This document shows positions 21,486 through 61,229 of a stretch of 64,000 nt of DNA, piece by piece. Source of the stretch: Candidatus Zixiibacteriota bacterium. GTDB taxonomy: Bacteria; Zixibacteria; MSB-5A5; CAIYYT01. The translations under genes were made by a program, and so were the position numbers. Position 1 is the first letter of the stretch. Each line of letters opens with the position of its first letter. The notes under the pieces were generated by a model that saw only the letters and a list, made by a program, of their open reading frames with translations, made no database searches and was not told the origin of the DNA. The stretch covers positions 70,181 to 134,180 of the forward strand of contig JADYYF010000109.1 in the NCBI GenBank assembly GCA_020853795.1, given 5' to 3'.

Positions 21486-22256
21486 TTACAACTTCAATCG
21501 CAGGCTGATAAAATACGAATCGAGCGCCTTGACCTCTTCGGCAAACTTCGGGGAAACGAGTCGGATCAGATCGTACGCGGTCGTGCCGGCGCCAAGGTAG
21601 TACTCCGATTCGACGCGGCCTTGCGCGTTGTGAGATATCGAATAGCCCACACCAACGTGGCCGTAGTAGATGCGGTAGGTCCCCCACCAGATGAAATTGG
21701 CGAACTCCTCGTTCTCGTTGGCGAGGAATTTGTTCTCAAAATCCCACGGCGGACGTTTGACGCAGAACTTCATGTCGAAGTTGTTCGGGTAGCGCTGCCT
21801 CAAGAGCGCCCAGCCGATGCCGCCGTAGTCGAACAGCAGATCGCTGACGCCGAGTCCCTGGTCGGGGTTGAAGGCATCCATCGGAAACTCGACCAACGTC
21901 ACCACCAGTCCCGCCTGCAGTGCCGAGTACTTGGTGATCTGGTCCTCCGGCATCTTGAGAATACGAAACAGCCAGCCGAAGCCCTCGGTCAGTTTGTAGC
22001 CGGCGTAGAAGTGGCTGACCTCGTCGGTCAGTGCGATGTTATCATGAAATTCGTTCTTGAAGTGAAACCTGCCGTTTGGCGCGCCCCACGTCTCTTCGAA
22101 ATAGAAGTATGCCGCCGTTCCAAACACCACGTTGCCAACGATCAAGTTGCGCTGGAAATGCGACGGCGGGTTGACGCGCAGACTATCGAGCTTCTGACCG
22201 CGGGCAACGGCGACCAGCAAGAGCGCCAACAGCGCGCATCGGGCTACGGCTCGCAC
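21486..22256 (-). CDS. Hypothetical secreted protein
   Basis: Signal peptide ALLALLLVAVARGQ. No recognised domain. Confidence 0.5.
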   Translation of the reverse strand: MRAVARCALLALLLVAVARGQKLDSLRVNPPSHFQRNLIVGNVVFGTAAYFYFEETWGAPNGRFHFKNEFHDNIALTDEVSHFYAGYKLTEGFGWLFRILKMPEDQITKYSALQAGLVVTLVEFPMDAFNPDQGLGVSDLLFDYGGIGWALLRQRYPNNFDMKFCVKRPPWDFENKFLANENEEFANFIWWGTYRIYYGHVGVGYSISHNAQGRVESEYYLGAGTTAYDLIRLVSPKFAEEVKALDSYFISLRLKL

Positions 22257-24445
22257 GGCAGCGGCGCGCCCTCAAAGAGATGGTTTACGAACAGGATCAG
22301 GTCGACCAGATTGAAGCGGCTGTCGCAGTTTGGATCGACGACGCGCAGCGGGACATTGATCGGCGCGCCGCGATAAAGCACGCGCACCATCTCGATCAGG
22401 TCGGCGATCGACAGCATTTCGTCCATGGTGATGTCGCCCGATTCATACCCGGCGGTGGTGCCGTAAGTAACCACAAAACGTTCGGCGCGCTGCGTCAGCC
22501 CGCTTGCGAATACCGACACACCCACCGGCGTGGTCTCGCGGCGCCGGCCGCTGATCGTCAGAAACGAGATCCTGGTTTCGCCGACCCCGAGCACCAACTG
22601 CGGTGGCGACGCGGTGACATAGAGCGGCTCGTCGGTGACGATATTGATTTCGGTGGCAAAATCAGTGGTGTTCGTGAACGAGAGCGTGCGTTCCGCAAAG
22701 GCGTCGGCTAATGGCTCAACAGTCACCGCGAGCGTGTCCTTGTAAATCGCCTCGGGCATATCTCCGAGACTGCCAACCTGGATCCTTCCTCCGACCAACT
22801 CGCCCTGTGGCTGATCGAGATCGACAACCAGGTAGAGCGGATCGGTCAACTGCGAGAGTTTCTGATTGACCCAGGTAATCGGCTCTTCGCCATACTCCTT
22901 GTAGGAAGTGATGATCGGGTCAATGCCGCCATCAACGCTGCTTAACGTTCCGTCGCCGTCCTTGTCAAGGTAGATCCCTTCGTAGTAAATGCTCGTGCCG
23001 ACTGCGCCAATAACGATGGGGCACGCCAATTTGTCCCTGAACACATAATCGTCGCCGTCGGGCACGAAGCGGTTAATCTTCTGGGTGCTGTCCAGGGTAA
23101 ATGAGATTGATGTGAACCAATAACCCGGAGCGACATACGGAATGCGCAGGTAGCGCCCGGCATAATCCATCGAGCCTCCGAGATATCGGCCACCCCAATT
23201 GCGGCCGGGGCGAATGCGCCCGCTGTTGATCGCCCATCCCGCAGAGTAGGCTTCCGTCTCAACCCGCATCGTGTCTGACTGATACGCCTCCCGCAACCGC
23301 CCGACAAATTCCAACAGCTTCCCGACCCCGTCGCGGTTGGAGTTGCCCCGCGCCACAATCAGCGCGGTTGTCAACGTCATGCTCTCCCCCGGGCGCAGCG
23401 TATCCGGGATCGTGTTCAGCAAAAAACGATAGTCGCGCGAGAGATCGGCGACCCAACCGGTCGAATCCACCGGATTACCGCCAAAAGGGTAGAGCGTCGG
23501 CAGCGATGTGTTTGGATCAAAGTATGGCTGCCCATCGGGGCGCAGGCCCTTGATCACGTTGATCACATCGGGCAGCGTGTCGACCGCAATGCACTCCGGA
23601 TACTGGCTGCGACAGCCGTAGTAATAGTTCGCCGACAGCGCGCGGTTGCGCAGCATCGTCATGCCGACCACAGGCGTAAAATCGCCGTAGTCCGAGTCGT
23701 AGTCGGCCTCGTCGTAAACATAGGCGCATTGCAAGGCTTGATTGGTTCCCAGCCGGTCATTGGTCGAAAAACCGATATCGGGATCAGCGTAGATCGAAAT
23801 GATGCAGGAATCGATGATAGAATCACTGACATTCGTAATCGTGTAGTCGAAGAAAATCACCTGCGCCATCAGTGTGTCGTAGAGCTGATAGGTGTTATCC
23901 CAGGTGTACGCATGCAACCGTACGTCCACGCCGAGCGACTGAACGCTTGAGAACCCCTGAAAAATATGCGATGCCGAATCCCCGTCGTGGAACATCGTCC
24001 AGAGCCCCTGCCCGCCCAATTGCAGCGGCTGGCCGAGGGCGTTAATCGGCGCACCGAGCGCGACCGGCCAATTGCGGTAGTCGTCGTTGAGTTCGTAGTT
24101 CTCACCGCGGGTGATTTTGTAGATCGGAAAAGCCGAGTCGGCGTCGGTTCCTGCCGGCTGCCACGGCCCCGGTTTGAATTCGCTTTCATCGCCGGAGATT
24201 GTAATCCGCCACTCGTTGTTGACCTTCCCCGCTACCCAGATGCCGCCACCTGCCATCAGGGCGCGGCGACTGCTGCCCGGATAATAGAGCCCGGCGGGAT
24301 TGTTGCGCGTCAGGTAGGGATCGTAGCCGAACGTGCCGTTGTTATGCACGAAGAGCGTCATGGCGCCGTCATCTAGCGTACGCACAACCTGCCCCAAGGC
24401 TGCGCTGCAAAGTGCGCATACAAGCATGAGTAGACGAAATCGCAT
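22244..24445 (-). CDS. Secreted hypothetical protein with C-terminal dockerin-like domain
   Basis: Probable start at MRFRLLMLVCALCSAALG (signal peptide). The C-terminal about 60 aa (GDITMDEMLSIADLIEMVRVLYRG ... DPNCDSRFNLVDLILFVNHLFEG) match the dockerin Ca-binding loop pattern DxNxDxxxNxxD...G. Confidence 0.6.
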   Translation of the reverse strand: MRFRLLMLVCALCSAALGQVVRTLDDGAMTLFVHNNGTFGYDPYLTRNNPAGLYYPGSSRRALMAGGGIWVAGKVNNEWRITISGDESEFKPGPWQPAGTDADSAFPIYKITRGENYELNDDYRNWPVALGAPINALGQPLQLGGQGLWTMFHDGDSASHIFQGFSSVQSLGVDVRLHAYTWDNTYQLYDTLMAQVIFFDYTITNVSDSIIDSCIISIYADPDIGFSTNDRLGTNQALQCAYVYDEADYDSDYGDFTPVVGMTMLRNRALSANYYYGCRSQYPECIAVDTLPDVINVIKGLRPDGQPYFDPNTSLPTLYPFGGNPVDSTGWVADLSRDYRFLLNTIPDTLRPGESMTLTTALIVARGNSNRDGVGKLLEFVGRLREAYQSDTMRVETEAYSAGWAINSGRIRPGRNWGGRYLGGSMDYAGRYLRIPYVAPGYWFTSISFTLDSTQKINRFVPDGDDYVFRDKLACPIVIGAVGTSIYYEGIYLDKDGDGTLSSVDGGIDPIITSYKEYGEEPITWVNQKLSQLTDPLYLVVDLDQPQGELVGGRIQVGSLGDMPEAIYKDTLAVTVEPLADAFAERTLSFTNTTDFATEINIVTDEPLYVTASPPQLVLGVGETRISFLTISGRRRETTPVGVSVFASGLTQRAERFVVTYGTTAGYESGDITMDEMLSIADLIEMVRVLYRGAPINVPLRVVDPNCDSRFNLVDLILFVNHLFEGAPLPCEP
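22247..22438 (-). other. Dockerin-like module (C-terminus of the 745 aa protein)
   Basis: Two EF-hand-like loops as described for the parent CDS. Confidence 0.5.
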
Positions 24446-24588
24446 GTCTGCCGAATATACGCATTCGATTGCGCGGCGCAAAATGGTGACTTCAGGAAGT
24501 TGTGGGGCAGGCCTCCTAACGGAAATACTGTGAATGACGGCTCATCTTTGAGGAGACCTGCCATTCGTCCAAGTCGCCGGCCCCGGCC

Positions 24589-27441
24589 CTACTTAAGCAG
24601 CAAGACCTTGATCGTGCGGGATTGGTCGTCCGCCTGCAGGCGAACGAAATAGATTCCGGTCGGCAGCGTCTCGCCGGTATCGGCGTCGCCATCCCACGTG
24701 GCGTAGTAGCCGCCGATCCGCTGTTCGCCGGTGAAGATCGTCTTCACCTGCTGCCCGAGAATGTTGAGCACGCGCAGGTCGACCAACGATGATTGGCTCA
24801 GTGTGTACGGAATGATCGTTGCGGCATTGAAGGGGTTTGGATAATTCGGACCAAGAGTGAAATCCGTCGGCATAATCGGGCTTTCGACCGGATACACCGG
24901 CGTCGAGGAGGTAATCGCGGCACTTCCTGCCAGAGCGACCGGTGCTGAAATCGCGCCGGAAGTGTCGCGAACGACGCCGCTCAATTCAATCGGGTATTCT
25001 CCGTCGGCGACATCGCTGCCCGCGGTGAAGTGCAGAATCGCAATCGCACTGGAGCCTTCAGCCAGCGGATCGCTCATCGGCGATGAGGCAACAGCCACCG
25101 ACGTGATTCCCAGCATCGTGGGCGCACTCGACTGCCAGGTCAGAACGCCGCCGCTGCGCAGCGTAGTACTCACCGAGTCGAGAGTCATCGCTGCATCATC
25201 AAACGTGAGATCGAAAGCAACGCTATCGACCGCCAGGTAATTTCGCAGACTGAGCGCCACCTCAAACGGCTGACCAACCGCAGCATTAATCGCCTCCAAA
25301 GCGAGCGTGTCAGGTGGACGCAGAACTGTGGCGTGAACCACTGCCATTAACGGAGAATTCACAGCCGCCGGATCGCTGATCGTCAGATGCGCATAGTGCT
25401 CACCAACCTGAAGCAGCGCGGTATTAATCGACACGGAAACTACGCCGTCGCCAAGCATCGCCTCCGGCGTGGTCGCCACCCAGGTGGCATCGGGAACAAT
25501 CATCCAATCGATCGTGCCGGTACCGGAATTGTAGATCACCAGTTCCTGCGCCGGCACGGATGTACCCGCAAGAAAGCCAAAATGCAGCGTATCGGGATCG
25601 ATTGTCAGGATCGGCGCATTGACGATGTAGTTCAAGTTGACCGTGAACTGCTGCGGAGAATTGGCCGCCTGCGACGAGGTCACGGTGATCGCCGCACTGT
25701 ATTCACCTGGCCCGGGCAAGGAGTCGGTTTCAAAAATCAGATCAACTGCGCTCGGCGCCGTTCCGGACACCTGCGACAATTTCAGCCAATTCGGCGCGCC
25801 ACTGGCGGACCAGTCTAATGTTCCGGTTCCGGAATTTTCAATCATTACGTACCGGTCGTCCGGTGGCGCTGAACCGAATTGGGTTTGGACATCTATTGAG
25901 GAGGGGGTAATGCTCAAGACCGGCGCGGTGATGCTGAGCGCAACCACCACGGTGCGTGACGAGTCTTTGCCGGAGGCATCGCTGATGGTGATGCGCCCCG
26001 CATGGTCGCCATAGGCCAGGCCGGCAATGTTGACCGCGACGGCAAGCGTGGCCGGCGCTGCGCCGGCAGTCGGCGTTACGGTCAGCCATGGCTGGTTGTC
26101 GGTCACGCTGTAGTTGAGTATACCGTAGCCCTGATTATTCACGAGCAATTGCTGGCTCGGCGGATTGGAGCCGCCCTGCTGCGCGGAAAATGTCAGCGAA
26201 GTCGGCGTCACAACGATTGCCGGCGCGCCGTACTCGGTGATCTTGGCGTAGACATCGAAGCTGCCGTTACGATCGTCGGTCCAGGTGTAGTAGATATTGA
26301 TCCCGTCCATAGTGACGTTCGGGAACGACTGCGTCGCGGTGCCGGCGTCACTGTTGACGCGATAGTTGCCGGCGAGCGAACTGCCCTCGGCGCGATAGTA
26401 CTGTGCATAAATGTCGTTGTTGCCGAGGCGGTCGTCGCGCCAGGCGATGATGAAGTTACCGAAGTAGTCCATCGCGACCGAGGCTTCGGCCTGATTCACC
26501 GCCCCGCCATCGACGTTGACCCGGTAGTTGTCGGACCGCGCCGTGCCGTTCGCCCAGTAGTTGCGGGCGTAAACATCGGGGTTGTTCGGATAGACGCCGT
26601 TGCGATAGTCGATCCAGGCGATCGTGAAATTGCCGTTGTAGTCGCAAGCGACATCGGCAAAGACGCACTTGTTGTTCGTGATATTGTCGTTGACGAGAAA
26701 ATTCGTGCCCTGCGCGACCCCGGAGACATTGAAGCGCTGCGCCATGATGTTGTCGCGGCCGGAGCGGTTGTCATACCAGGTGACGATGAAATCGCCATCC
26801 CCGTCAACCGCGATCTTGGGATTGTGCTGGTAGGCCGCGCCGGCGTCGTCGTTGACGCGGAAGTTGGCGCCCAGCTTGGTGCCCGACTTGTGATAGCGCT
26901 GGGCGTAGATGTCGTAATTGCCGTTGCGGTTGTCCTCCCAGACCACCACGTAATTGCCGAAATCATCACAGTCGATATCCTGCCAGCCCTGCGTCTCGAC
27001 TCCAAAATCGTCGTTGACTTTGGTGTTGGTCGAAACCAGCGAGCCGTCGGCGTTGAAGCGCTGTCCGTAGATATCGCCGTTGAATGGATAGCCTGTGATG
27101 CGGAAATCCTGCCAGACGACGATGAACTTACCCAGTTGATCTTTCATCAACGAGGGCCGCAGTTGCTCATTGCCCACGGGATCGTCATTGACACGACGAT
27201 TTGAGCCGGAGCGATTGCCGAGGTGGTCGAAGGCTTGGAGGTAAATGTCGTTATCGCCATTGCGCTTGTCGTACCAGGAGACGACGAAGTTGCCGTCGAG
27301 GTCGACCGCGATATGCGAGTATCCCTGATAGGCGGTACCGAAATCGTCATTAACGCGGAAATCGGCGACGTCGCAGCGTCCATCTGCGAACCAGAGGATG
27401 CAGACCAAAAAGAAGCAAATCAGGGCAAAACGTGCTTTCAT
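24589..27441 (-). CDS. T9SS-sorted surface protein: seven roughly 50-aa tandem repeats, three BACON/Ig-like domains, one cohesin-like domain and a Por-secretion C-terminal sorting domain
   Basis: Signal peptide. Seven repeats of the form [FY]RVNDDxGxxxQxxPxIAxDxxGNFVVxWxDxRNGxxDIYAQR[FY]. BACON-like segments (TSLTFSAQQGG...LLVNNQGYGILNYSVT...PWLTVTP...). Cohesin-like segment AAVGQPFEVALSLRNYLAVDSVAFDLTFDDAAMTLDSV...GSSAIAILHFTAGSDVADGEYPIEL. T9SS CTD ...GPNYPNPFNAATIIPY...GIYFVRLQADDQSRTIKVLLLK. Confidence 0.75.
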   Translation of the reverse strand: MKARFALICFFLVCILWFADGRCDVADFRVNDDFGTAYQGYSHIAVDLDGNFVVSWYDKRNGDNDIYLQAFDHLGNRSGSNRRVNDDPVGNEQLRPSLMKDQLGKFIVVWQDFRITGYPFNGDIYGQRFNADGSLVSTNTKVNDDFGVETQGWQDIDCDDFGNYVVVWEDNRNGNYDIYAQRYHKSGTKLGANFRVNDDAGAAYQHNPKIAVDGDGDFIVTWYDNRSGRDNIMAQRFNVSGVAQGTNFLVNDNITNNKCVFADVACDYNGNFTIAWIDYRNGVYPNNPDVYARNYWANGTARSDNYRVNVDGGAVNQAEASVAMDYFGNFIIAWRDDRLGNNDIYAQYYRAEGSSLAGNYRVNSDAGTATQSFPNVTMDGINIYYTWTDDRNGSFDVYAKITEYGAPAIVVTPTSLTFSAQQGGSNPPSQQLLVNNQGYGILNYSVTDNQPWLTVTPTAGAAPATLAVAVNIAGLAYGDHAGRITISDASGKDSSRTVVVALSITAPVLSITPSSIDVQTQFGSAPPDDRYVMIENSGTGTLDWSASGAPNWLKLSQVSGTAPSAVDLIFETDSLPGPGEYSAAITVTSSQAANSPQQFTVNLNYIVNAPILTIDPDTLHFGFLAGTSVPAQELVIYNSGTGTIDWMIVPDATWVATTPEAMLGDGVVSVSINTALLQVGEHYAHLTISDPAAVNSPLMAVVHATVLRPPDTLALEAINAAVGQPFEVALSLRNYLAVDSVAFDLTFDDAAMTLDSVSTTLRSGGVLTWQSSAPTMLGITSVAVASSPMSDPLAEGSSAIAILHFTAGSDVADGEYPIELSGVVRDTSGAISAPVALAGSAAITSSTPVYPVESPIMPTDFTLGPNYPNPFNAATIIPYTLSQSSLVDLRVLNILGQQVKTIFTGEQRIGGYYATWDGDADTGETLPTGIYFVRLQADDQSRTIKVLLLK
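24913..25305 (-). other. Cohesin-like domain within the 950 aa T9SS protein
   Basis: About 130 aa with the cohesin-type pattern VGxxFxVxxSLxN...V.S..FxLxYD...L...SV...G........G....AIA.L.F.....G...I.L. Confidence 0.5.
26330..27370 (-). repeat. Seven in-frame tandem coding repeats of about 150 nt each (likely beta-propeller blades)
   Basis: Protein-level periodicity of about 47-55 aa with a conserved RVNDD ... GNFVV.W.D.R.G..DIYAQRF core. Nucleotide copies are diverged. Confidence 0.7.
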
Positions 27442-41810: not shown

Positions 41811-43937
41811 CTACTTGAGCAAGACAACCTTGCGCGTGACCACTTGCCCTGCCCCAGCGACGCGCACAAAATAGATGCCGGAAGCAACCGCATGGCCGCT
41901 TTGATCAACACCGTCCCAGGTCACGGTACTGCCGGTGGCGAGCGCCAACGTCTGGCGGCAAATCGTCTGACCGAGCGAATTGACCACCATGAGGTCAACC
42001 GCAACGGGCGCGATCGCAGTAATCTGCGCGGTCGTAGTGGAGTTGAAGGGATTTGGGTAGAACGGCGTGAGATCGATGCGCGCGCGCTGACTCCCGGGAG
42101 CAGGCGCATGGCGTTCGCTACCGTCATAGACCGATAGGCGCGACGATGAGAGCACCAGCAGTCGATCTCCCCCGGCCGCCAGCCGATAAGCTCCGTGGCT
42201 GTTCTCGATCGTGTACACGGGTCCCGGCGCATACGGATCGGCAAAATCCAGATAGCGCACGCCACCGACGGCATCGGCGATCAGCAGAATCTGCGCAACG
42301 GAATCGTAGCGAAGATCAAATGCCGAGGTCATGACCAAGGGCAGCTGTATCGGAGTTACCGCGCCGGTCGCAGCATCGAATTCCAGAACGCTGACTCCTG
42401 ATGGGGCTGCGACCACGATGATTCGATCTCCGGCGATCGCAAACGCCCGCGGCCGCTCGGGCAGATCAACGGTGGCCGGCGTTGCCGCAGGATCATCCAG
42501 GGATATGATGGCGCCTTCCCCGCGTTCCGACGCAAGCAACAGCAACGACTCGCCCATCTGACTGCCCGAAACCGCAAAGTCGACGGAGTGACTGCTTAAG
42601 AATTCCACCGCCAGCGATTGGCGATCGAAAGCGTAACTCATCGAACCGCGCGCATGAACGACGACGAGTTCCAGCTTGTCGACGCCCGCTTCACGCAGAT
42701 AGACTGCTGAGACTGGCTCCGCGGTGTAGACAACTGCCGAAGGTCGCAGGTCGTTGCCGCGGTCAAATTCGAAAAGATAGACTTGTTCGGAACCGGCTTG
42801 AGCTGCGACGATCACATCACCCGCCGCCGTCAGCCGATTGAAGAATCCACCAACTCCAACCGTCTTCGCCTCCCTCTCACTATTGCCAAGCAATCGCAAG
42901 CGACCACCGGAGTCGGCATACAGCAATCCGCGATCGGTTGCGGCAAACGCCAATGGCGTTTCCGGCGGGACAAATCGGGAGGCTTCGCCGACCGACTCGC
43001 CGCCAACCGTGATCACAGCGATCTGTCCCGACTCATCGCGAATGTAGAATCTGGTCTTGCCGTCAACGCTCAGCCCTTCGCACTGTGCCACCGGATAACC
43101 AACCGCAATTGTCGCTGCCTCTGTTGGATTATCGAAATCGACGATGCGGCACAGACCGTCGGGACCGCCGGCAATCAAGAATCTGGAAACGGCGGCAAGC
43201 TGAGTGACGGCGAAATCGCAAACAACTGAATCGACTCCGTTGACGCGGCCATCTTGCAGATGGAACAAGTCGACACTCTGACCGCCGTCGCAAATCGCAA
43301 AGCCATCCGCGATCGGCGCCACGGCCGTCGGCGGCGTCTCGCGCAGAATACGTTCTACCGGCGACATCTCTGAAGATCTGAGGTCGTAAACATCGATTCC
43401 GTTGAGGCGATCAAGGGCAAGCAGAAAGCGGCCGTGAAGCGCCAACCCGATGTAGTAGGCGCCACCCGTGAATCGCGCCATCTCGCGCAGGCGACCCGGC
43501 ATCGAGGCATCGTACAGGGCGATTCCCGCCACGCCCAATGCCGCAAAGAGCGTGTCATGGCGCGCCGTGGCGGCATGAATCGTGTCGGCCAGAAGGTACT
43601 CGACCGGCGCCGTCAGGGCCGACTCTCGCCAATTGAGCACGGCAAGACGACGCTGACGCGAGTAAACGTAGGCTCGGTCGCCGGCGGCGGTGATGCCGGC
43701 AAATTCGCTGGCCAGCGTGATGGCCGCATCTGGTACGAGGCGGGGTTGCGCGTTCAGCGGCAGCCGCAGCACCTGACGATCGCCGAGAGCCAGCACAAAG
43801 TCGGGCGCTACGGCAAACGACCGCGCCCCGCCGAGCGGAATTGTCGTCACCGGCTCGAACATCTCCGGACCGACGTCCGCCCAAACCGGCATTGACAACC
43901 ATTGGAGCAGGACCAGGACCAATCGCAGCCACTTCAT
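41811..43937 (-). CDS. T9SS-sorted beta-propeller-like protein (LVIVD-type repeats)
   Basis: Signal peptide. Recurring strand motifs such as IALYDASMP, IDVYDLRSSEMSP, RIVDFDNPTEA, YLFEFDRGNDLRP, VRYLDFADPYAP and LSVYDGSERHAP. T9SS CTD ...FYPNPFNSTTTAQI...GIYFVRVAGAGQVVTRKVVLLK. Confidence 0.65.
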   Translation of the reverse strand: MKWLRLVLVLLQWLSMPVWADVGPEMFEPVTTIPLGGARSFAVAPDFVLALGDRQVLRLPLNAQPRLVPDAAITLASEFAGITAAGDRAYVYSRQRRLAVLNWRESALTAPVEYLLADTIHAATARHDTLFAALGVAGIALYDASMPGRLREMARFTGGAYYIGLALHGRFLLALDRLNGIDVYDLRSSEMSPVERILRETPPTAVAPIADGFAICDGGQSVDLFHLQDGRVNGVDSVVCDFAVTQLAAVSRFLIAGGPDGLCRIVDFDNPTEAATIAVGYPVAQCEGLSVDGKTRFYIRDESGQIAVITVGGESVGEASRFVPPETPLAFAATDRGLLYADSGGRLRLLGNSEREAKTVGVGGFFNRLTAAGDVIVAAQAGSEQVYLFEFDRGNDLRPSAVVYTAEPVSAVYLREAGVDKLELVVVHARGSMSYAFDRQSLAVEFLSSHSVDFAVSGSQMGESLLLLASERGEGAIISLDDPAATPATVDLPERPRAFAIAGDRIIVVAAPSGVSVLEFDAATGAVTPIQLPLVMTSAFDLRYDSVAQILLIADAVGGVRYLDFADPYAPGPVYTIENSHGAYRLAAGGDRLLVLSSSRLSVYDGSERHAPAPGSQRARIDLTPFYPNPFNSTTTAQITAIAPVAVDLMVVNSLGQTICRQTLALATGSTVTWDGVDQSGHAVASGIYFVRVAGAGQVVTRKVVLLK

Positions 43938-46900
43938 TTCAACAACACCATTCTGCGCGTCTCGTTGACGTTGTTCATGCGCAAGCGGTAGAAGTAGACA
44001 CCCGATGCCACCTCTCGGCCGTGGAAATCGCGGCCGTTCCAGTCGAAACGGTGAAACCCCGCCGGCAGGAACCTGTCAACGAGTGTGGCAACGGTCTGGC
44101 CCAGGAGATTGATGATCTCAATCTTGACCGGTGCGGCGGTGACAACGTCGACTTCAATGACCGTCGTCTGATTGAACGGATTCGGATAGTTTTGCGCCAG
44201 ACGAAACGTGGTCGGCAACGGTGGCGGTTGCGGCGTGCGCGGACGCGCCAGGCTCGGCAACATCCCGGTGTTGCGAGTATCACCGAGGAATGTCCCCCAT
44301 GCTACCGCCGAATCAGACGCGACCGTCGGCAAGTCCCAACTGTAGATGCGCCCATCGGAAGATCCAATGTAGATTTCCAGCAATGAGTCGCCGTCGAAAT
44401 CGCCCACCACCGGCGTATGCGGCGCATATGTGACGACCCCGGGATTGGCGAAGGTGTAAACCGGCCAGCCGGGCGTCGTCGTGCCGTCGGTCTCCCAGCA
44501 CAGCAGTCGTTCCGGCTTGCCGATGAGCAAGGCGCCGCCGCGCGAGACGATCTCGAACTGGCCGTCATTGTCGACGTCGAGCACGAGCGGGTTGGACAGC
44601 GAGTTGATCGTGCCGGCCAGGAAGCCATCGTTACGGCCAAATTCATTGGCCAGCAGCGGCCGGCCGTCGCCGTGCCACACGAACACCTCGCCGCCGTCGA
44701 GCGCGCTGAATGCGCAGATCAATTCTGGAATCGAGTCGTTGTCCAGGTCGGCCGCCGCCGGATATGAGGTCAGCCACTGGATCTTCTCCGGAAACAACTT
44801 GGGCCAGCCGGGCAGGTCGGAACCGTCGGCTTCGATAATTCGCACCGCCATCGCCAGGTTGCTCGAATACCAGTGCGCGAAAGCAATCTCGGGAACGGCA
44901 TCGTTGTCAAAGTCTGCAAGTACGCCGCCGAAGATACCGTCCGAGGAAAAGATGCGCGCACCAAGGTCGGCATTGTACGGCGCGCCGTTCTTGCCGGAAT
45001 ACAGGTAGACACCACCATCGGCGCCGGCGGCGGTATAGAGCGTGCCAACATCGCGGTAGCCGTCACCGTCAAAGTCGTAAGCAAACAAGAATGCCGCGGT
45101 TGAACCGCCGTAATCCTTAAAGCGGCCCGATTCGCTCAGCCGTGCAAAGAGCCCGCGCGTGGTACGGAAATAGCTCGAGCCGTCGGCGTGCCAGCAATAG
45201 ATCTCCCCGGCGCTGTTGACGAAGAGAACTTCCATCTCGCCGTCGCCGTCAAGATCGGAAACAAGTGGGGTAGGATAGGAGTTGAACTGCAAACCGGTAT
45301 TGACCGCCTTCGGCCAGCCCGGCAAAGACTCGCCCTCTCCATTGACGACAATGACGCCGCGATCAGAAATCGATACGATCTCGTCGCGACCATCATTATC
45401 CAGATCACAAAGTGCCGGTGACGATTCGTAGGTGTTGCCGAAATGCGGATCAATCGTGCGCAGACCGGGCTGGTCGTAGTCGTTGATCAGCAATCCGGCG
45501 CGCGAACCGGTGACGATTTCGCGCCCCGGATCTGCGTCAAGATTGCCGGCGGCAGAGGTCAGATGCGGCCGCGCCGGCAGCGCCAGCGGGTAGCCGGCCG
45601 CCACGGTCGATTTGATCACGATGCGATTGGAAACGGCGTGCTCACCTGCATCATCAGTCAAGGTCAAGGTCAGGAATCCGCGTCCCGGCGGAAGTTGACC
45701 CACTGTCCATTCGGCCAATTCGCGGCGATAACTGATTTCCGTCGAAAACTTGATCAACGTTTCCTGCTTCGGATTCGATTCCGGCGCATACGTGAGCCGA
45801 TAGGAATCGAAAGTCGGCGACGAAGCCGAACCGACGATATTCGCAACCGAATAGACAGTATCGCCGTCGTGCGGCGTCAGCAATTCAACCACGACCGAGT
45901 TCGCAATCCGAATTGTCGTTGTGAACGCGATGCTGGTACCCACGCGCAGGCGCAGATCCGCATCGCCGTCATACGGGCTGCTGTCCCAGCGTGCCAGCAG
46001 ATTGCGCACGATGTCGCCAGGTCCCGTTGCAATCGTAGTCCAGTCACCGGTCGCAGCCGGCCGTACTTCGAGCACGAAACTACTACCCAGCTGCGATACC
46101 GCCGAACCGCGCAGATTGACAACTCCTGTCACCAATGCATTTGGGTGTGGTGACTCGATCTCGGCATATTCGTCCTGCAGCAATCCCACCGCACGGCCCA
46201 GGTTGATGCGCCCCCACCCGGCGTACGGACTGAAATTCCCCTGCAAGCGACCGTCCGGATCGGCAATCTTGTCGGCACTGCCCATCAGCAGTTGCTCGAC
46301 CGAATCGCGCGGCAAACCGGGCGCGACCGATAGAATGAAAGCCGCCGAAGCGGCGACGTGCGGGGCCGCCATGCTCGTGCCGTCGGCGAGATAATAGAAC
46401 TCATCGATGATGCGGATTTCCGGCTCTCCCTGCGCCGCATACAGATCGGTGCGCGCCGCCCGCAGCGAAAGAATATTCTCGCCCGGCGCGGCAACATCAA
46501 GCCAGTCGCCATAGGTCGAAAATGTTGTCACGCGATCAGCCGAACCGGTGGCACCGACCGTCAGGACGTGGTCGAGACGGGCGGGAAAAAACGGTGTCGA
46601 GGTCCCCGAATTGCCCGCCGCCGCCACAAAAACTACGCCGCGATCGGCGGCGTACTGCACCGCCTCCGCCAGAATTGTCGAATAGTACGGCGATCCCCAC
46701 GAGGCATTGATCACCTTGGCGCCCTGATTCACGGCATAGATGATCGCCTGTGCGCTGGCGGACGCGAGCGCATTCGGGAAGATCTTGAGACACATCACTT
46801 CGACGTTGCGCGCCACACCCTCGATACCAATGCCGTTTCCGGCAACGGCGCCGACGATCCCTGCCACATGCGTGCCGTGGCCGATGGTGTCGACCGGGTC

Positions 46901-47665
46901 GGGATCGGGTGAGACGGAAATTCCCTCCATCACATCACCGGAGAAATCATAGCCGACGGTGTCGTCGATATAACCGTTGAAATCGTCGTCGAAGCCTGGA
47001 ATGCCGTTCGTCTCAGCCGGATTGTGCCAGATATGCCCCTGTAAGTCGGGATGATGGTAGTCCACGCCGGTGTCGATGATCGCGACACGCACGCGGCTGC
47101 GATCGGCCGGTGCGGAACTGACTTGCCCCCAGCCGATGTCCGCGCCGGGTGTGCCGGTGAATAACCGCAGCGAATCATTCTCGAATCCGGGCACCCGCAC
47201 GATTCCGAGATATGGCTGGCCGGTATTGACCAATCCCCATTGGTTCGGGAGAAGCGGATCGGCGAAAAGCTGCATGTAGTAGTCGCGTTCAACATACTCG
47301 ACCGCAGGGTCGGCGGCGAGAATCGATTCGGCAATCGCCCGCGTCGAATCCGAGTTGAACTCGACAATATTTACCCGTGCCAGACCTTCGGCATCAGGGT
47401 GCACCAGTTGCGCGGACGGCACGAGCGGCTCAACAGCGCGCGCACCGGCGACGGCCGCGACCTTGTTCAATTGAGATGAAGCAGCCCCGGGACGAAACTT
47501 GACGATCAGTCGGCTGGGATGATAGTCGGAAGCGTTGAGACCACCGTGCGCGACGAGCGCCAGCAATGCAGCGGTCAGGACGATCCGACCCACCCGCATC
47601 AGCAGTCGCGTCTCGGTGGCAGGAGTTTGTGATTGGTTCGGGCGCACGGTGACAATATCGCTCAT
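43934..47665 (-). CDS. Subtilisin-like (S8) serine protease with FG-GAP/VCBS-type repeats and T9SS C-terminal sorting domain
   Basis: Probable start at MRVGRIVLTAALLALVAHG. I9-like propeptide. Catalytic triad contexts AIIDTGVDYHHPDL, GHGTHVAGIVGA, DGTSMAAPHVAASAAFI. Seven or more Ca-binding repeats (DLDNDGRDEIV, DLDGDGEMEVLF, DFDGDGYRDV, DVDNDGQFEIV, DFDGDSLLEIYIG). CTD ...AQNYPNPFNQTTVIEV...GVYFYRLRMNNVNETRRMVLLK. Confidence 0.85.
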   Translation of the reverse strand: MSDIVTVRPNQSQTPATETRLLMRVGRIVLTAALLALVAHGGLNASDYHPSRLIVKFRPGAASSQLNKVAAVAGARAVEPLVPSAQLVHPDAEGLARVNIVEFNSDSTRAIAESILAADPAVEYVERDYYMQLFADPLLPNQWGLVNTGQPYLGIVRVPGFENDSLRLFTGTPGADIGWGQVSSAPADRSRVRVAIIDTGVDYHHPDLQGHIWHNPAETNGIPGFDDDFNGYIDDTVGYDFSGDVMEGISVSPDPDPVDTIGHGTHVAGIVGAVAGNGIGIEGVARNVEVMCLKIFPNALASASAQAIIYAVNQGAKVINASWGSPYYSTILAEAVQYAADRGVVFVAAAGNSGTSTPFFPARLDHVLTVGATGSADRVTTFSTYGDWLDVAAPGENILSLRAARTDLYAAQGEPEIRIIDEFYYLADGTSMAAPHVAASAAFILSVAPGLPRDSVEQLLMGSADKIADPDGRLQGNFSPYAGWGRINLGRAVGLLQDEYAEIESPHPNALVTGVVNLRGSAVSQLGSSFVLEVRPAATGDWTTIATGPGDIVRNLLARWDSSPYDGDADLRLRVGTSIAFTTTIRIANSVVVELLTPHDGDTVYSVANIVGSASSPTFDSYRLTYAPESNPKQETLIKFSTEISYRRELAEWTVGQLPPGRGFLTLTLTDDAGEHAVSNRIVIKSTVAAGYPLALPARPHLTSAAGNLDADPGREIVTGSRAGLLINDYDQPGLRTIDPHFGNTYESSPALCDLDNDGRDEIVSISDRGVIVVNGEGESLPGWPKAVNTGLQFNSYPTPLVSDLDGDGEMEVLFVNSAGEIYCWHADGSSYFRTTRGLFARLSESGRFKDYGGSTAAFLFAYDFDGDGYRDVGTLYTAAGADGGVYLYSGKNGAPYNADLGARIFSSDGIFGGVLADFDNDAVPEIAFAHWYSSNLAMAVRIIEADGSDLPGWPKLFPEKIQWLTSYPAAADLDNDSIPELICAFSALDGGEVFVWHGDGRPLLANEFGRNDGFLAGTINSLSNPLVLDVDNDGQFEIVSRGGALLIGKPERLLCWETDGTTTPGWPVYTFANPGVVTYAPHTPVVGDFDGDSLLEIYIGSSDGRIYSWDLPTVASDSAVAWGTFLGDTRNTGMLPSLARPRTPQPPPLPTTFRLAQNYPNPFNQTTVIEVDVVTAAPVKIEIINLLGQTVATLVDRFLPAGFHRFDWNGRDFHGREVASGVYFYRLRMNNVNETRRMVLLK

Positions 47666-53309: not shown

Positions 53310-55517
53310 TCACAGGTAGTCGCCACACTCACAGCTCGGCGCCGGCGGCGGTCCGCCCGCGAAGATGAAATTGATAATATAGACCGCATCGGAGATGTTC
53401 ACGGCGCCACTGCAATCCAGATCGCCTGACCCGATCGCATGCGGCATCGGACTTGGTCCGCCGGAGAACACGTAGCTGACGATGTAGACGGCATCGCTGA
53501 TGCTGTACGCATCGTCGCCGTTGGCATCCCCCACCTTCCATGTGCATAGATTGACCGTCAGGTTCTCTACCGAGCTAAACGCCGACCACTGCGCTTCAGC
53601 ATCCTTGGCGCGGACACGATAGAAGTACTCCCCGGCGCTGAGTCCAGCAACATGATAGGTCGTGTCGGTGATGCTGTTGGAAAGCATCGTCTCAGTCGCA
53701 TAGCCTTCAACTGGATAAATGTCGTCAATCCACCAGCCGGGATCATTGACGAAGCCATCCGTGACATAGCGGAACCGCAAATTGATATCTTGCCCGACAT
53801 ACGCGGCCAGACTGAACTTCGCTTCAACCCACGAGGACGATAGTCCCGTGATGCCGTTACCGAGATTGTTGCCGTTGGGATTGGTGTTGGTTGTAATGTT
53901 GCCCGGGATGCTCGCCCACGTCGAACCGCTGTTGGTGGAGACTTCCACGTAGCCGTAGTCCCAATTGGTCTCGATATCATACCAGGTCCAGAACTTGAGG
54001 CTGTCGCCGGCTTGGACGCTCAGCTTGTTAAAAGCGGACAACCGATTGTTGAGATTCGCCGCCGAGCCGCCAAAATACGATTTCGTGCCGGAGTGGGCGC
54101 GGGTCGTCGAGACTGTAAAACCATTGGTGATCCAGTTGCCGCTGATGGCCTCGATGTTGTCCGTAGTGCGAGTGAATCCCTGCAACTGCCACAATTCGTA
54201 GGACACCGCCGGATTGACGGTGTCGGCATGATGCCAGTAGACATCCGTGGCATTCGCTTCAATGATGCCCAGCGGATAAATCTGTGGCTGCGCCGGTACC
54301 CGAAGCCTCTCCGGCTTGTCGGCGATCCGGGCCACAAACAGATTGGGATAAACATTGGCCTGCACGAGCGGTGTGATGCGGGATGTTGGCGGCCAGAAGT
54401 CGTCCGACTGCGTGCCCACCTCGATCGTGACGGCGTAGGTCTTGTTCTTCAGCGTCTGCTCCCCATAGCCCCAGTCATCGGTGGAACCATTGACTGGATA
54501 TAGCAACTGCCACGGCGGCCCGATTGCATAATTGGTCTGAGCGCGGATCGAATCCCCCATTGTCTGGAAGATGTCGTTGTCGGGCGTGTAGATCTGATCA
54601 TAGCCCCACGGCCACAGGAAGTAGTTGCCATAGGAGTGATAGCTTAAGGCAATGACGAAATTGTGCGAGATTATGAAATCGCGAATCCGCTGCGTCTCCG
54701 GTTCCGAGAAGGCCGAAGCCCCGCGATACGTCTCGTCGCTGCCAATCGGCGATGATCCCTCATCATCATAGCCCCATTGATATCCGAAATTGCGATTCAG
54801 GTCGATACCATACGAACCGTCGCCGTTGTTACGCCGGTTCTTGCGCCACAAACCGCCCCCGCCCGGCTCAATCACCTCGTTGTGATAGTAGCCGTCCGGA
54901 TTGACGACGGTCGAGAAGAACAACTCGCGATTGTTCACCAGGTACGTCACTTGCGGATCGGTGCCGTAGTTGTTGGTCAGATAACGCATGAAGTAGATCA
55001 GCAGTTCAGGCGTAATCACCTCGCGCGCATGGATCGCGCCGTAGTAGTACACTTCCGGCTCGTCCTCGTCGATCAAGGCATTATCCGATATCTTCATCAC
55101 GTAAATTGGGCGACCCTCGATCGTGTTGCCGATCGACCACTTGCCGCGCACGATCAGCGGGTTCTGATTCGCAATCGAATCCATCGCCAGGTAAATTTCG
55201 GAAAGCGTACGATACCCGCCCATGTCGCGCGACGGATCAAATCGGCTCTGGAAGAAGGCGGTAAGGTCGGGGGCTTCGACGCTATACCGCAATCCGTGTT
55301 GCTCCAGTCGGGCAATCTCCTCCGGAGCGACCAGCACATCGATGTACTTCTCACCCTGGTAGACTTCGTCCATTCTTAGAGACTTGAGCGCCAGATAATC
55401 GGCGCGGCTCTCGATGGCGACGCGCACCTTCGCCAGGCGCTCACCGGCTCCCTGCGCGATCGCAGCCCCGATCAACAGTGATAATGTCAGGAAAATGACA
55501 ATAGCTCGTCTTGTCAT
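53310..55517 (-). CDS. M14-family zinc carboxypeptidase with C-terminal tandem dockerin-like repeats
   Basis: Probable start at MTRRAIVIFLTLSLLIGAAIAQG (the ORF extends to 55568). M14 zinc ligands: HAREVITPE (HxxE) with a downstream histidine. C-terminus GDANGDDAYSISDAVYIVSYVFSGG ... GDLDCSGAVNISDAVYIINFIFAGG is two dockerin-type Ca-binding loops. Confidence 0.75.
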   Translation of the reverse strand: MTRRAIVIFLTLSLLIGAAIAQGAGERLAKVRVAIESRADYLALKSLRMDEVYQGEKYIDVLVAPEEIARLEQHGLRYSVEAPDLTAFFQSRFDPSRDMGGYRTLSEIYLAMDSIANQNPLIVRGKWSIGNTIEGRPIYVMKISDNALIDEDEPEVYYYGAIHAREVITPELLIYFMRYLTNNYGTDPQVTYLVNNRELFFSTVVNPDGYYHNEVIEPGGGGLWRKNRRNNGDGSYGIDLNRNFGYQWGYDDEGSSPIGSDETYRGASAFSEPETQRIRDFIISHNFVIALSYHSYGNYFLWPWGYDQIYTPDNDIFQTMGDSIRAQTNYAIGPPWQLLYPVNGSTDDWGYGEQTLKNKTYAVTIEVGTQSDDFWPPTSRITPLVQANVYPNLFVARIADKPERLRVPAQPQIYPLGIIEANATDVYWHHADTVNPAVSYELWQLQGFTRTTDNIEAISGNWITNGFTVSTTRAHSGTKSYFGGSAANLNNRLSAFNKLSVQAGDSLKFWTWYDIETNWDYGYVEVSTNSGSTWASIPGNITTNTNPNGNNLGNGITGLSSSWVEAKFSLAAYVGQDINLRFRYVTDGFVNDPGWWIDDIYPVEGYATETMLSNSITDTTYHVAGLSAGEYFYRVRAKDAEAQWSAFSSVENLTVNLCTWKVGDANGDDAYSISDAVYIVSYVFSGGPSPMPHAIGSGDLDCSGAVNISDAVYIINFIFAGGPPPAPSCECGDYL
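53313..53537 (-). other. Tandem dockerin-like repeats (C-terminus of the M14 peptidase)
   Basis: Two 22-24 aa repeats with the D-x-[ND]-x-D-x-x-x-x-[SN]-x-x-D-[AL]-[VI] pattern. Confidence 0.55.
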
Positions 55518-55594
55518 GTGCGGGCTCCTCAGATGTAAAAGCAACGGCGTGGTGATATTACCGGCCAAAACCGGATTTCAAGAGCCAATATAGC

Positions 55595-59167: not shown

Positions 59168-60017
59168 GGCAACAAATCCATTCGTTCTTGCGCGTGATCA
59201 GATTGCCCCGAACCCGCTTGAGACTGAGGAAGCTCAGAAATTCGGCCTCCTGGTCCGTGAGGATTCCGGAGAGAATCATCACGCCCCCGGTCTTGAGGCT
59301 GCGCATGAAGTTCTCGAACAGATTGTAGATTTCATCCTTGATCAGGTTGCTGACCACCACGTCGTAGTAGCCGCTGCGATTGACCTTTTCCATCGAACCG
59401 AATTGAATTTGCACGATCGGTTCAACCTGATTGATCACCACGTTTTCTCTGGCGTTCTCGATCGCGGCCAGGTCAATGTCAAGGCCGAGCGCCTCGGATG
59501 CCCCCAGCTTGGCGGCGAGAATACTCAGGATACCCGACCCGCAGCCGAGATCGAGCAGCTTATCGCCGGGCTTGATATCCTTGAGCAACTGCGCCACGCA
59601 CAACTGCGTGGTCTCGTGATGGCCCGTACCAAAAGCCATCTTCGGTTCGATCGTGATCTGCAGCTTGTCGCCGTAATCGGCCTCGTCCCAGGTGGACTTG
59701 ACCACGACGTTGTCGATGATGATCGACCGAAACGACTGTTGGTATTGCTTGATCCAGTCGATGTCGTCGATCGCCTTGACCGAGATGACGGCATCGAGAT
59801 TCTCCGCGCGTGCGATGCCGACGCGGACGAGATACTTGCCGAGCGATTCCACCTTGTCCCGCGACTCTTCTTCAATCGGAAGATAGAATTTGACGTGGAA
59901 ATCGGCATCGGAGACCTCCGTCACCAGTCCTTGCGATAGCGATTCGGTAATGTATGACGTGACGATGTCCTCATTGGTGGGATCGCACTTGATGCTGACT
60001 TCAAGGTAACCGGCCAA
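59151..60017 (-). CDS. prmA: Ribosomal protein L11 methyltransferase
   Basis: SAM-binding motif LDLGCGSGILSILAAKLGA and PrmA domain architecture. 288 aa. Confidence 0.85.
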   Translation of the reverse strand: MAGYLEVSIKCDPTNEDIVTSYITESLSQGLVTEVSDADFHVKFYLPIEEESRDKVESLGKYLVRVGIARAENLDAVISVKAIDDIDWIKQYQQSFRSIIIDNVVVKSTWDEADYGDKLQITIEPKMAFGTGHHETTQLCVAQLLKDIKPGDKLLDLGCGSGILSILAAKLGASEALGLDIDLAAIENARENVVINQVEPIVQIQFGSMEKVNRSGYYDVVVSNLIKDEIYNLFENFMRSLKTGGVMILSGILTDQEAEFLSFLSLKRVRGNLITRKNEWICCRVIKA

Positions 60018-60019
60018 TG

Positions 60020-61195
60020 TCAGACTCCCAGCGATTCCCGCAGCCGTTCAAGGATCGACTTGGTCTCGCGGGCGGGCGGCATGTCGCCCTCCAACCGGCG
60101 GAGTTTTTCGTAAAGCTGTTTCTGTTCCGACGAGAGATTTTGCGGCGTCCAGACCGTGATCTTGACGAGCAAATCCCCCCGTCCGGCGGAACGCAGTCGA
60201 CCCAGTCCCTGGCCGCGCAATTTCAGAATCTTGCCGTCCTGCGTGCCGGCTGGAACCTTGAGTTTGACTGCGCTGTCCAGCGTCTCCACATCGATCTCCG
60301 CGCCGAGCACCGCCGCCGCCATCGTGATCGGGATCTCCGTGATGAGATCATTGCCCTGGCGAATGAAGCGTTCGTGCGGTTTCTCCTCGATCAGCACGAT
60401 CAAATCGCCCGACTCGCCTCCGCGCATCCCGGCATTGCCCTCCCCGCGCAGCGGGATATAGTTCCCCTCGGCAACCCCCGCCGGGACTTTGACCGTGATG
60501 GTCGCCTGCTCCTCGACCCGGCCCGAACCGGCACAGGTACCGCACGGCGTGGTTATCACCTCGCCGGAGCCGCCGCAATTCGAGCAGGTCGAAACATTGA
60601 TGAACTGGCCGAACATCGACCGCGACACGTGGCGGACTTCGCCGGCACCGTTGCAGACGCGACAGCGTTCGCGCGAAGCTCCGGCCGCGGCGCCCGAACC
60701 GTGACACGTCTGACAACGCTTGAAGCGGCGGAATTTGATGACTTTCTCGGTACCGAAAGCGATTTCTTCGAGGGTCAGTTTCAGCCGGACCTTGATATCC
60801 TCGCCATGGAACGACTGGCGGCGATCGCCGCGGCGCGAAGAACCGCCGCCGAACATTTCATCGAAGATCGAGCCGCCCATGCCGAAGTCGCGCATGAAGG
60901 CGCGCAGCGCGTCGTTGATGTCGAAACCTTGGCCGAAGCCGCCGCCGTAGTTGCCTGCTCCCTGACCGGCGCCGACACCGGCATGCCCGAATTGATCGTA
61001 GCGCGCCCGCGTCTGCGGATCCTTAAGCACTTCGTAGGCCTCGGTCGCCTCCTTGAATTTCTCCTCGGCGGCCTTGTCGCCCGGGTTCTTGTCCGGGTGA
61101 TACTGAATCGCAAGCTTGCGATAGGCTTTCTTGATGTCTTCTTCGGTGGCCGACTTCGACACGCCGAGAATCTCGTAATAATCTCGTTTAGCCAT
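60020..61195 (-). CDS. dnaJ: Chaperone DnaJ
   Basis: J domain ([33 protein letters not shown]), G/F-rich region and four CxxCxGxG zinc-finger repeats. Confidence 0.95.
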
Positions 61196-61229
61196 GTGCG
61201 TTGGCGATGACCTCCATCAGCGCGTTCGG

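Follow-up and report, generated by a model that had tools for sequence, protein, structure and literature searches.

Non-cellulosomal cohesin and dockerin modules have been known from all three domains of life since 2009. Here, we analyze a stretch of 64,000 nucleotides (the window) from the assembly of a Candidatus Zixiibacteriota bacterium (GCA_020853795.1; contig JADYYF010000109.1, positions 70,181 to 134,180 of the forward strand), in which a secreted protein of 950 amino acids (aa), P950, combines a predicted cohesin with a C-terminal type IX secretion system (T9SS) sorting domain and in which the neighboring gene encodes P745, a secreted protein with a predicted dockerin tail. Judged by analogy, the closest functional analogues of P950 would be OlpA/OlpC of Clostridium (Acetivibrio) thermocellum (PDB 3ul4 and 4dh2), in which one cohesin on a surface anchor holds one dockerin protein. 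OlpA/OlpC are, however, attached to a Gram-positive wall by SLH repeats, whereas the predicted anchor of P950 is a T9SS sorting domain in the setting of a diderm outer membrane; moreover, P950 adds a propeller and BACON domains, and the protein presumed to be its partner comes from the same operon and does not belong to the glycoside hydrolases.

Two published proposals share other aspects with this locus. In Ca. Stygibacter (Cloacimonadota), a member of the Fibrobacterota–Chlorobiota–Bacteroidota (FCB) group, Williams et al. (2021) predicted a cellulosome-like complex with a multi-cohesin scaffoldin that has a T9SS sorting domain, together with dockerin-tagged S8 and C25 peptidases and other hydrolases (PMC8542988). 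As in the window, this is an FCB diderm with a cohesin protein whose conserved C-terminal domain points to T9SS-type attachment and with dockerin-tagged peptidase(s), and both cases come from genome data alone; the Ca. Stygibacter scaffoldin, however, has 3,755 aa, tandem cohesins, and CBM2/CBM3 modules, whereas P950 has one predicted cohesin, no CBM, and an apparently dedicated, syntenic partner. The second proposal, the "planctosome" of freshwater Planctomycetes (Nemodlikiaceae) put forward by Andrei et al. (2019), is a proteolytic cohesin–dockerin assembly at the outer membrane that includes dockerin-tagged M12B and M14 peptidases (PMC6461901). Non-cellulosomal cohesin and dockerin modules, the outer membrane setting, and a dockerin-tagged M14 carboxypeptidase recur in the window, but the planctosome belongs to another phylum, has a lamin-tail anchor instead of a T9SS sorting domain, and includes an adaptor with both dockerin and cohesin.

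Both systems are genome predictions, and the concept of a diderm cohesin–dockerin proteolytic assembly is already published as an in-silico prediction. An earlier note on the DNA of the window had suggested a cellulosome-like proteolytic surface assembly and had not recognized it as a described system; at the level of the concept it is preceded by these two reports, and P950–P745 is a small relative of genome-predicted cellulosome-like systems and not a new kind of machine. Current understanding of cohesin–dockerin biology is left unchanged. As for related literature, dockerin-bearing proteins in rumen metagenomes, predicted peptidases included, have been tied to protein catabolism (PMC6487960), the Melioribacter genome paper reports dockerin/scaffoldin domains on none of the cellulase genes of that organism, and our literature search found no paper that names both Zixibacteria and dockerin.

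P950 combines a predicted cohesin with a T9SS sorting domain

The open reading frames (ORFs) of P950, P745, and an M14 carboxypeptidase that the earlier note had pointed out are present where it had placed them, all on the minus strand, and P745 is followed by a third gene, P256:

24589..27441, minus strand: P950, a secreted 950 aa predicted T9SS cargo protein (GenBank MCC6963345.1)
22244..24481, minus strand: P745, with an upstream TTG start at 24481; the ATG at 24445 is more plausible
21486..22256, minus strand: P256, third gene of the conserved triad, with a signal peptide
53310..55568, minus strand: secreted M14 carboxypeptidase, start probably at 55517 (GenBank MCC6963366.1)

In GenBank, P950 is annotated as "T9SS type A sorting domain-containing protein" and nothing more. 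Its signal peptide is followed, in this order, by a seven-repeat propeller, three BACON/immunoglobulin (Ig) domains, the predicted cohesin, and the T9SS sorting domain:

26242..27369, minus strand: seven propeller-like repeats of ~53 aa each (aa 25–400), read from the sequence and TIGR04275
25327..26241, minus strand: three BACON/Ig-like domains (aa 401–705), from BACON_2, BACON, and choice-of-anchor D matches
24907..25308, minus strand: predicted divergent cohesin (aa 712–845), directly ahead of the T9SS sorting domain
24592..24843, minus strand: type A T9SS C-terminal sorting domain (aa 867–950), from TIGR04183, Por_Secre_tail, and FlgD_ig

This architecture bears out the propeller repeats, the BACON/Ig domains, and the sorting domain that had been read from the sequence before. 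Every repeat has the motif (R/K/L)VN(D/S/V)(D/N), which is directly readable in aa 25–400, and matches to the TIGR04275 beta-propeller repeat support the assignment; with 73–93% identity across orthologs, the propeller is the best-conserved part of the protein. BACON_2 matches at 1.5e-15, together with BACON and choice-of-anchor D, and TIGR04183 matches aa 867–947 of 950, i.e. the extreme C-terminus, with 37.8 bits against a cutoff of 23. We conclude that P950 has the hallmarks expected of type A T9SS cargo.

The segment between the BACON and sorting domains is matched by Pfam Cohesin (PF00963) at aa 714–829 (E=3.3e-4). With 21.3 bits, the match falls just short of the gathering score of 24.1, and it spans profile positions 4–123 of 139. 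It coincides with the segment that the earlier note had marked as cohesin-like (24913..25305, corresponding to aa 713–843). Used as a single sequence in a phmmer search of PDB sequences, the segment found nothing relevant and profiles were required; word-indexed homolog searches gave 1 match for the segment and 6 for the ortholog profile, all fragmentary. Relatives came from phmmer run exhaustively against 1.8 billion representative proteins, which returned 30 of them at E <1e-3. Among the best ten of these, nine scanned with matches to Pfam Cohesin or T9SS tail, six scored 92–270 bits on Pfam Cohesin, and two of these six are also T9SS-tailed. One of these relatives, P0008, is a scaffoldin of the classical, SLH-anchored kind; P0009 and P0010 (E=1e-11 and 1.1e-10) each have several cohesins and a T9SS tail, and P0011 combines two cohesins with a dockerin. 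A further protein, P0007, has a layout of BACON, cohesin, and T9SS tail like that of P950 and passes PF00963 at 25.3 bits.

Profiles extended these matches to solved structures. With a profile made of the cohesin segments of eight orthologs only (A2), the top four PDB sequences were cohesins (best 4uyp_A, E=1.5e-3), and a profile of 36 sequences, canonical cohesins included (A3), matched 25 solved cohesin chains (best 2xdh_A at 3.5e-14). AlphaFold2 (AF2), run on the segment with the A3 alignment, gave an all-beta model with a predicted local distance difference test (pLDDT) score of 91 and a predicted TM-score (pTM) of 0.81, a fold result that, resting on the same alignment, is not independent of the A3 profile result. 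The model has the cohesin-type beta-sandwich (jelly-roll, ~nine strands), and in a Foldseek search of the PDB all 50 of the 50 best matches were cohesins (E to 5e-10, TM-scores 0.6–0.8), with 3ul4_A and 4dh2 from the OlpA/OlpC system among the best. A single-sequence AF2 model of the segment was poor (pLDDT 57), uninformative, and set aside. The near-threshold PF00963 match, the ortholog profiles that lead to PDB cohesins, and the predicted cohesin fold agree with the assignment made in the earlier note; neither of the outcomes that the note had named as speaking against it, a missing cohesin HMM match or a predicted fold of another kind, was found. Based on fold and transitive homology, we take aa ~712–845 of P950 to be a genuine, divergent cohesin.

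The cohesin hidden Markov model (HMM) found no second cohesin in the 64 kb window. Because P950 has one cohesin and the window holds no other, P950 is a single-site anchor and not a multi-enzyme scaffold; the role of scaffold that it had been given, which calls for several cohesins, does not suit it.

P745 and the M14 carboxypeptidase end in dockerin-family modules of two subtypes

The earlier note had also described dockerin-like tails on P745 and on the M14 protein. The features that concern these tails are:

22448..24445, minus strand: P745 body (aa 13–678)
22247..22447, minus strand: predicted P745 dockerin module (aa 679–745), two Ca-loop/helix repeats
53328..53540, minus strand: predicted M14 dockerin module (aa 677–747 of the 752 aa ORF)

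The tail of P745 has two EF-hand-like loops, DITMDEMLSIAD and DPNCDSRFNLVD, 33 aa apart, with T at position 3 of DITMDEMLSIAD. In isolation, it scores E=0.044 and 14.4 bits on Pfam Dockerin_1 (PF00404; gathering score 22.9). Dockerin_1 is the top Pfam family for 9/9 orthologous P745 tails (best E=6e-5), and the orthologs have the canonical loops GDxDNDG and DADCD. The two repeats of the P745 type are asymmetric, ~36% identical to each other, and in the first helix of the tail (MVRILYR) the M, R, L, and R are invariant across orthologs. On its own, the P745-type profile is marginal against PDB dockerins (best 5lxv_B at 0.013), with EF-hand proteins among the weaker matches.

The M14 protein, annotated in GenBank as "immune inhibitor A", matches Peptidase_M14 (PF00246) with 234 bits and E=3.2e-69, above the gathering score, and contains an InhA-like MAM domain (2e-33). 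Its tail, with the loops DANGDDAYSISD and DLDCSGAVNISD, reaches E=0.012 and 16.2 bits on PF00404, likewise under the gathering score, and has real dockerins as its best PDB sequence matches. It belongs to a common subtype with the motif GDAxGDG..(I/V)SDAVYLINYIFxGGPxP, in which repeat 1 agrees with repeat 2 at ~57% of 28 aligned positions (our count from the sequence). A profile of five M14-type tails (A4) retrieved 457 database proteins; PF00404 is already present on the majority of them, and several bear the name "dockerin type I repeat-containing protein [Zixibacteria]". Against the PDB, the best match of this profile is 4dh2_B at 1.9e-5, which again leads to the OlpA/OlpC system, and 17/18 best matches are dockerins or dockerin-bearing proteins.

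The two tails also resemble each other. BLASTP within the window aligns them at E=6.7e-6, and the P745-type and M14-type profiles match each other at 1e-5 to 1e-10. When the 212 window ORFs of >=80 aa were scanned with a regular expression that describes a calcium loop and a subsequent amphipathic helix, paired loops were matched only in P745 and M14, twice in each, 33–35 aa apart and at the extreme C-terminus. Both tails have D at loop positions 1, 5, and 12, N/D/T at position 3, and a helix after each loop, in line with the two tandem segments of ~22 residues, each with a 12-residue EF-hand-like loop and a helix, by which dockerins are recognized. The dockerins of relatives pass PF00404 with 31.1 (L009), 26.9 (L002), and 36.0 bits (L020). 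Loops, profiles, and, for the M14 type, matches to PDB dockerins agree that the tails of P745 and M14 are dockerin-family modules of two subtypes. In the Pfam searches proposed before our analysis, the window copies matched Cohesin and Dockerin_1, both under their gathering scores.

These sub-threshold Pfam scores, and nothing else, would speak for chance resemblance, i.e. for a cohesin-like segment and tails that are not real domains. Profile, transitive, and fold evidence agree against this explanation, which is effectively refuted and to which we give next to no probability.

In both subtypes, position 4 of calcium loop 2 is an invariant Cys (DxxC; alignments A1 and A4), and a Cys near the C-terminus (..LPC) is invariant in P745-type tails and found in 4/5 M14-type tails. 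The pair suggests a possible disulfide clasp. A clasp of this kind is not known from classical clostridial dockerins.

The P745 body of ~670 aa is conserved and secreted, and D, G, W, and Y are invariant at numerous positions (e.g. IYADPDIGF). Even with a 10-ortholog profile, it matched nothing in Pfam, NCBIfam, or PDB sequences, no protease family in these databases included, and may represent an undescribed domain family. P256 has a weak DUF2279 match (19 bits) in addition to its signal peptide.

The P950–P745–P256 triad is conserved and suggests a dedicated pair

P950, P745, and P256 are co-directional on the minus strand, the start of P256 and the stop of P745 overlap by 13 nt, and the coding strand is free of terminator-like sites from one triad gene to the next; P745 apparently shares a transcription unit with P950. 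Order and orientation of the triad are kept in 15/16 related loci (12 from genomes and 3 from metagenomes), across which P950 identity ranges from 96% down to ~58%. In the sole exception (L083), in which P950 is missing, an IS4-family DDE transposase lies directly upstream of the P745 ortholog (L083 4018..5364). P256 follows the P745 ortholog in nearly every related locus for which downstream DNA is available. We also noted that two loci of one metagenome-assembled genome (MAG), SRP323723_co1_129, contain two versions of the triad, with 96% (L001) and 82% (L003) P950 identity to the window; these are either two strains that were binned together or a duplication.

The domains of P950 have diverged to different extents. 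Among P950 orthologs outside the window's own clade, identity is 73–82% for the propeller, 55–64% for the BACON region, 47–68% for the sorting domain, and 32–38% for the cohesin, which is the fastest-evolving domain of the protein. The identity of P745 across orthologs, 41–47%, is near the cohesin figure. Distant propeller homologs, e.g. L014 (BNR and PKD domains with a T9SS tail), lack a cohesin and are not accompanied by a P745 neighbor. The divergence of cohesin and P745 together with the synteny pattern would fit a dedicated, co-evolving pair; this evidence is circumstantial and no proof of binding, and since the orthologs represent approximately three independent clades, co-evolution is not separable from shared phylogeny. 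A metagenome scan for distant P745 relatives gave 5 loci, too few for a comparison of cohesin presence and absence with P745, and among them one distant relative (L085, 28% identity) that ends before the C-terminus.

Because the synteny of the triad is kept in 15/16 loci, the likeliest partner of the P950 cohesin, judged from gene content, is P745. Domain identities, the operon-like arrangement, and conserved synteny are observed directly. From these, our working model, to which we give modest preference and no more, is that a T9SS-exported P950 anchor and P745 form a 1:1, calcium-dependent cohesin–dockerin heterodimer. P950 would cross the outer membrane via the T9SS by means of its type A sorting domain and, in line with established T9SS biology, would probably stay on the cell surface; the attachment of type A cargo to the surface is reportedly covered in the 2017 review by Lasica et al., to which PMC8542988 refers. 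The membrane-proximal cohesin of P950 would then capture the dockerin of P745 in a calcium-dependent manner and with a 1:1 stoichiometry, so that the P745 body would be tethered close to the propeller and the BACON domains of P950, a part of the protein that probably binds ligands. P256 would be the conserved third component. Because its dockerin is of a different, very common subtype and its gene lies 26 kb from the P950 locus, the M14 protein would more probably dock on another cohesin protein elsewhere in the genome.

Several points weigh against this model. T9SS cargo can be released instead of anchored, and non-cellulosomal cohesin and dockerin modules often have no demonstrated partner. 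Synteny is evidence of functional linkage and not of physical docking. In the window, the cohesin and the two dockerins all score under the Pfam gathering thresholds, the canonical cohesins in the AF2 alignment may bias the model to that fold, and the first calcium loop of P745 is degenerate in this copy (DITMDE..., with the T at position 3 mentioned above). Finally, P745 and M14 carry Sec signal peptides and lack a T9SS sorting domain of their own that would take them to the surface of a diderm cell.

The last point extends beyond the window, in that a sorting domain is absent in 7/8 dockerin proteins of the loci examined and the cohesin-bearing anchors have one. We infer not only binding, calcium dependence, and surface retention but also any outer-membrane route of the dockerin proteins, for which two versions can be envisaged. 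In one, dockerin proteins without a sorting domain, namely P745, M14, and the lipase and beta-helix proteins from related loci, would bind a P950-type cohesin in the periplasm and the folded complex would exit via the T9SS, a route that we regard as a long shot; with the same low odds, the cohesin–dockerin pair would then not only tether proteins at the surface but also act as an adaptor in secretion. In the other, the dockerin proteins would be exported by type II secretion and captured outside the cell, which is equally compatible with the data and simpler.

Should the pairing of P950 with P745 be real, it would provide a compact two-protein test case for cohesin–dockerin docking at the outer membrane of a diderm, and a one-to-one pair would be simpler to express and test than the 3,755 aa scaffoldin of Ca. 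Stygibacter. It would also raise the concrete question of how the outer membrane is crossed by dockerin proteins that have no sorting domain, and it draws attention to a conserved, secreted domain of ~670 aa, the P745 body, without known relatives.

Cohesins and dockerins recur in related loci

A KSB1 locus (L020) encodes two T9SS-tailed proteins side by side, one with BACON and a dockerin and the other with a cohesin. A metagenome locus (L087; ERZ23498360, 1..11454; GC content 45%) contains a T9SS-tailed scaffoldin with six cohesins, followed by dockerin-bearing genes, namely a beta-helix/NosD protein with a dockerin and cohesin ORFs of which at least 2 also end in a dockerin, i.e. adaptor proteins that combine cohesins with a dockerin. 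L087 has the appearance of a complete multi-enzyme system whose anchor is T9SS-tailed. Like P950, the proteins P0009 and P0010 and the scaffoldin of L087 have cohesin(s) followed by a T9SS tail and adjoining dockerin genes, and they rank with the closest detectable relatives of the window cohesin; they differ from the single-site P950 in having 4–6 cohesins, HYDIN-like Ig domains, and adaptors with cohesin and dockerin, as expected for a true multi-site scaffold. Closer to the triad, two loci (L002 5815..7674 and L010 6046..7884) encode, ~2 kb upstream of the P950 ortholog, a class-3 lipase whose dockerin is N-terminal, directly after the signal peptide, instead of C-terminal, and a beta-helix/NosD-like protein with a dockerin lies near the P950 ortholog in L009; the dockerins of these proteins are above the Pfam threshold. 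Because dockerin enzymes and T9SS-tailed scaffoldins recur in related loci, cohesin–dockerin use is widespread in these lineages, and P950–P745 looks like a minimal, one-to-one case.

These findings bear on the proposal, closest to that of the earlier note, that P950 is the hub of a cellulosome-like proteolytic assembly at whose single cohesin M14, P745, and other dockerin hydrolases compete or exchange. Cohesin, dockerins, and T9SS cargo, on which that proposal was built, are all supported by our analysis, an M14 peptidase with a dockerin is encoded in the same genome, the two dockerin subtypes are homologous, and proteolytic cohesin–dockerin assemblies have been proposed elsewhere (PMC6461901, PMC8542988). 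M14 is the one hydrolase with a dockerin in the window, to which related MAG loci add the dockerin-tagged lipase and beta-helix protein near P950 orthologs. The assembly itself does not follow as readily: P950 has one cohesin and the window no other, P745 matches no protease, and M14, besides its distance from P950, has no observed synteny with it. Furthermore, the M14 dockerin is of the other subtype, internally symmetric and common to hundreds of proteins, whereas the P950 cohesin co-varies in position with the P745-type tail, and T9SS multi-cohesin scaffoldins able to serve M14-type dockerins occur in related data. Such scaffoldins, e.g. that of L087, would by analogy be the more natural receptors for the abundant M14-type dockerin. 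We consider a hub role for P950 improbable.

A second explanation accepts the modules as homologous and denies the pairing: the tails would be calcium-stabilized caps or binders of other ligands, the cohesin an Ig-like spacer, and the operon the reflection of a shared pathway. It would account for the sub-threshold scores of all three window modules, for the P745-type profile that reaches PDB dockerins only at E >=0.013 with EF-hand proteins among the weaker matches, and for the finding that dockerins far outnumber cohesins in these lineages. A cohesin fold predicted with high confidence speaks, however, against it, as does the position of a cohesin gene beside a dockerin gene not only in the 15/16 triad loci but also in the unrelated architectures of L020 and L087; and the four invariant residues (M, R, L, and R) in the helix that follows the first loop of the P745 tail are as expected of a binding face. 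Weighing these points, we hold the explanation without pairing to be unlikely, though it deserves more credit than a hub, and retain the P950–P745 heterodimer as our working model.

Other features of the window and its source

Two further proteins with T9SS-type C-terminal tails, both under the Pfam cutoff, are encoded on the minus strand at 41811..47665 by genes with a stop/start overlap:

43934..47665, minus strand: S8 subtilase of 1243 aa with FG-GAP repeats and a T9SS-type tail
41811..43937, minus strand: 708 aa protein with a T9SS-type tail and no other recognizable domain

Judged by their tails, these proteins imply indirectly that the genome has a T9SS. One organism here has two secreted peptidases, an S8 peptidase with a T9SS-type tail and an M14 peptidase with a dockerin instead.

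The minus strand carries essentially all real genes of the window (~45), dnaK and dnaJ included, and long plus-strand ORFs are antisense artefacts of high GC, e.g. 60017..61210 opposite dnaJ; the GC content of the window is 58.5%. There were no tRNA or Rfam RNA matches across the 64 kb.

The source organism is described as an uncultured, sediment-type bacterium, and taxonomic labels disagree. The source MAG is a "candidate division Zixibacteria bacterium" in GenBank, whereas contigs of near-identical and related MAGs, whose P950 identity reaches 96%, go by the label "uncultured Ignavibacteria bacterium". Zixibacteria and Ignavibacteria both belong to the FCB group, and the source organism is a member of this group under either label, in agreement with the host proposed in the earlier note.

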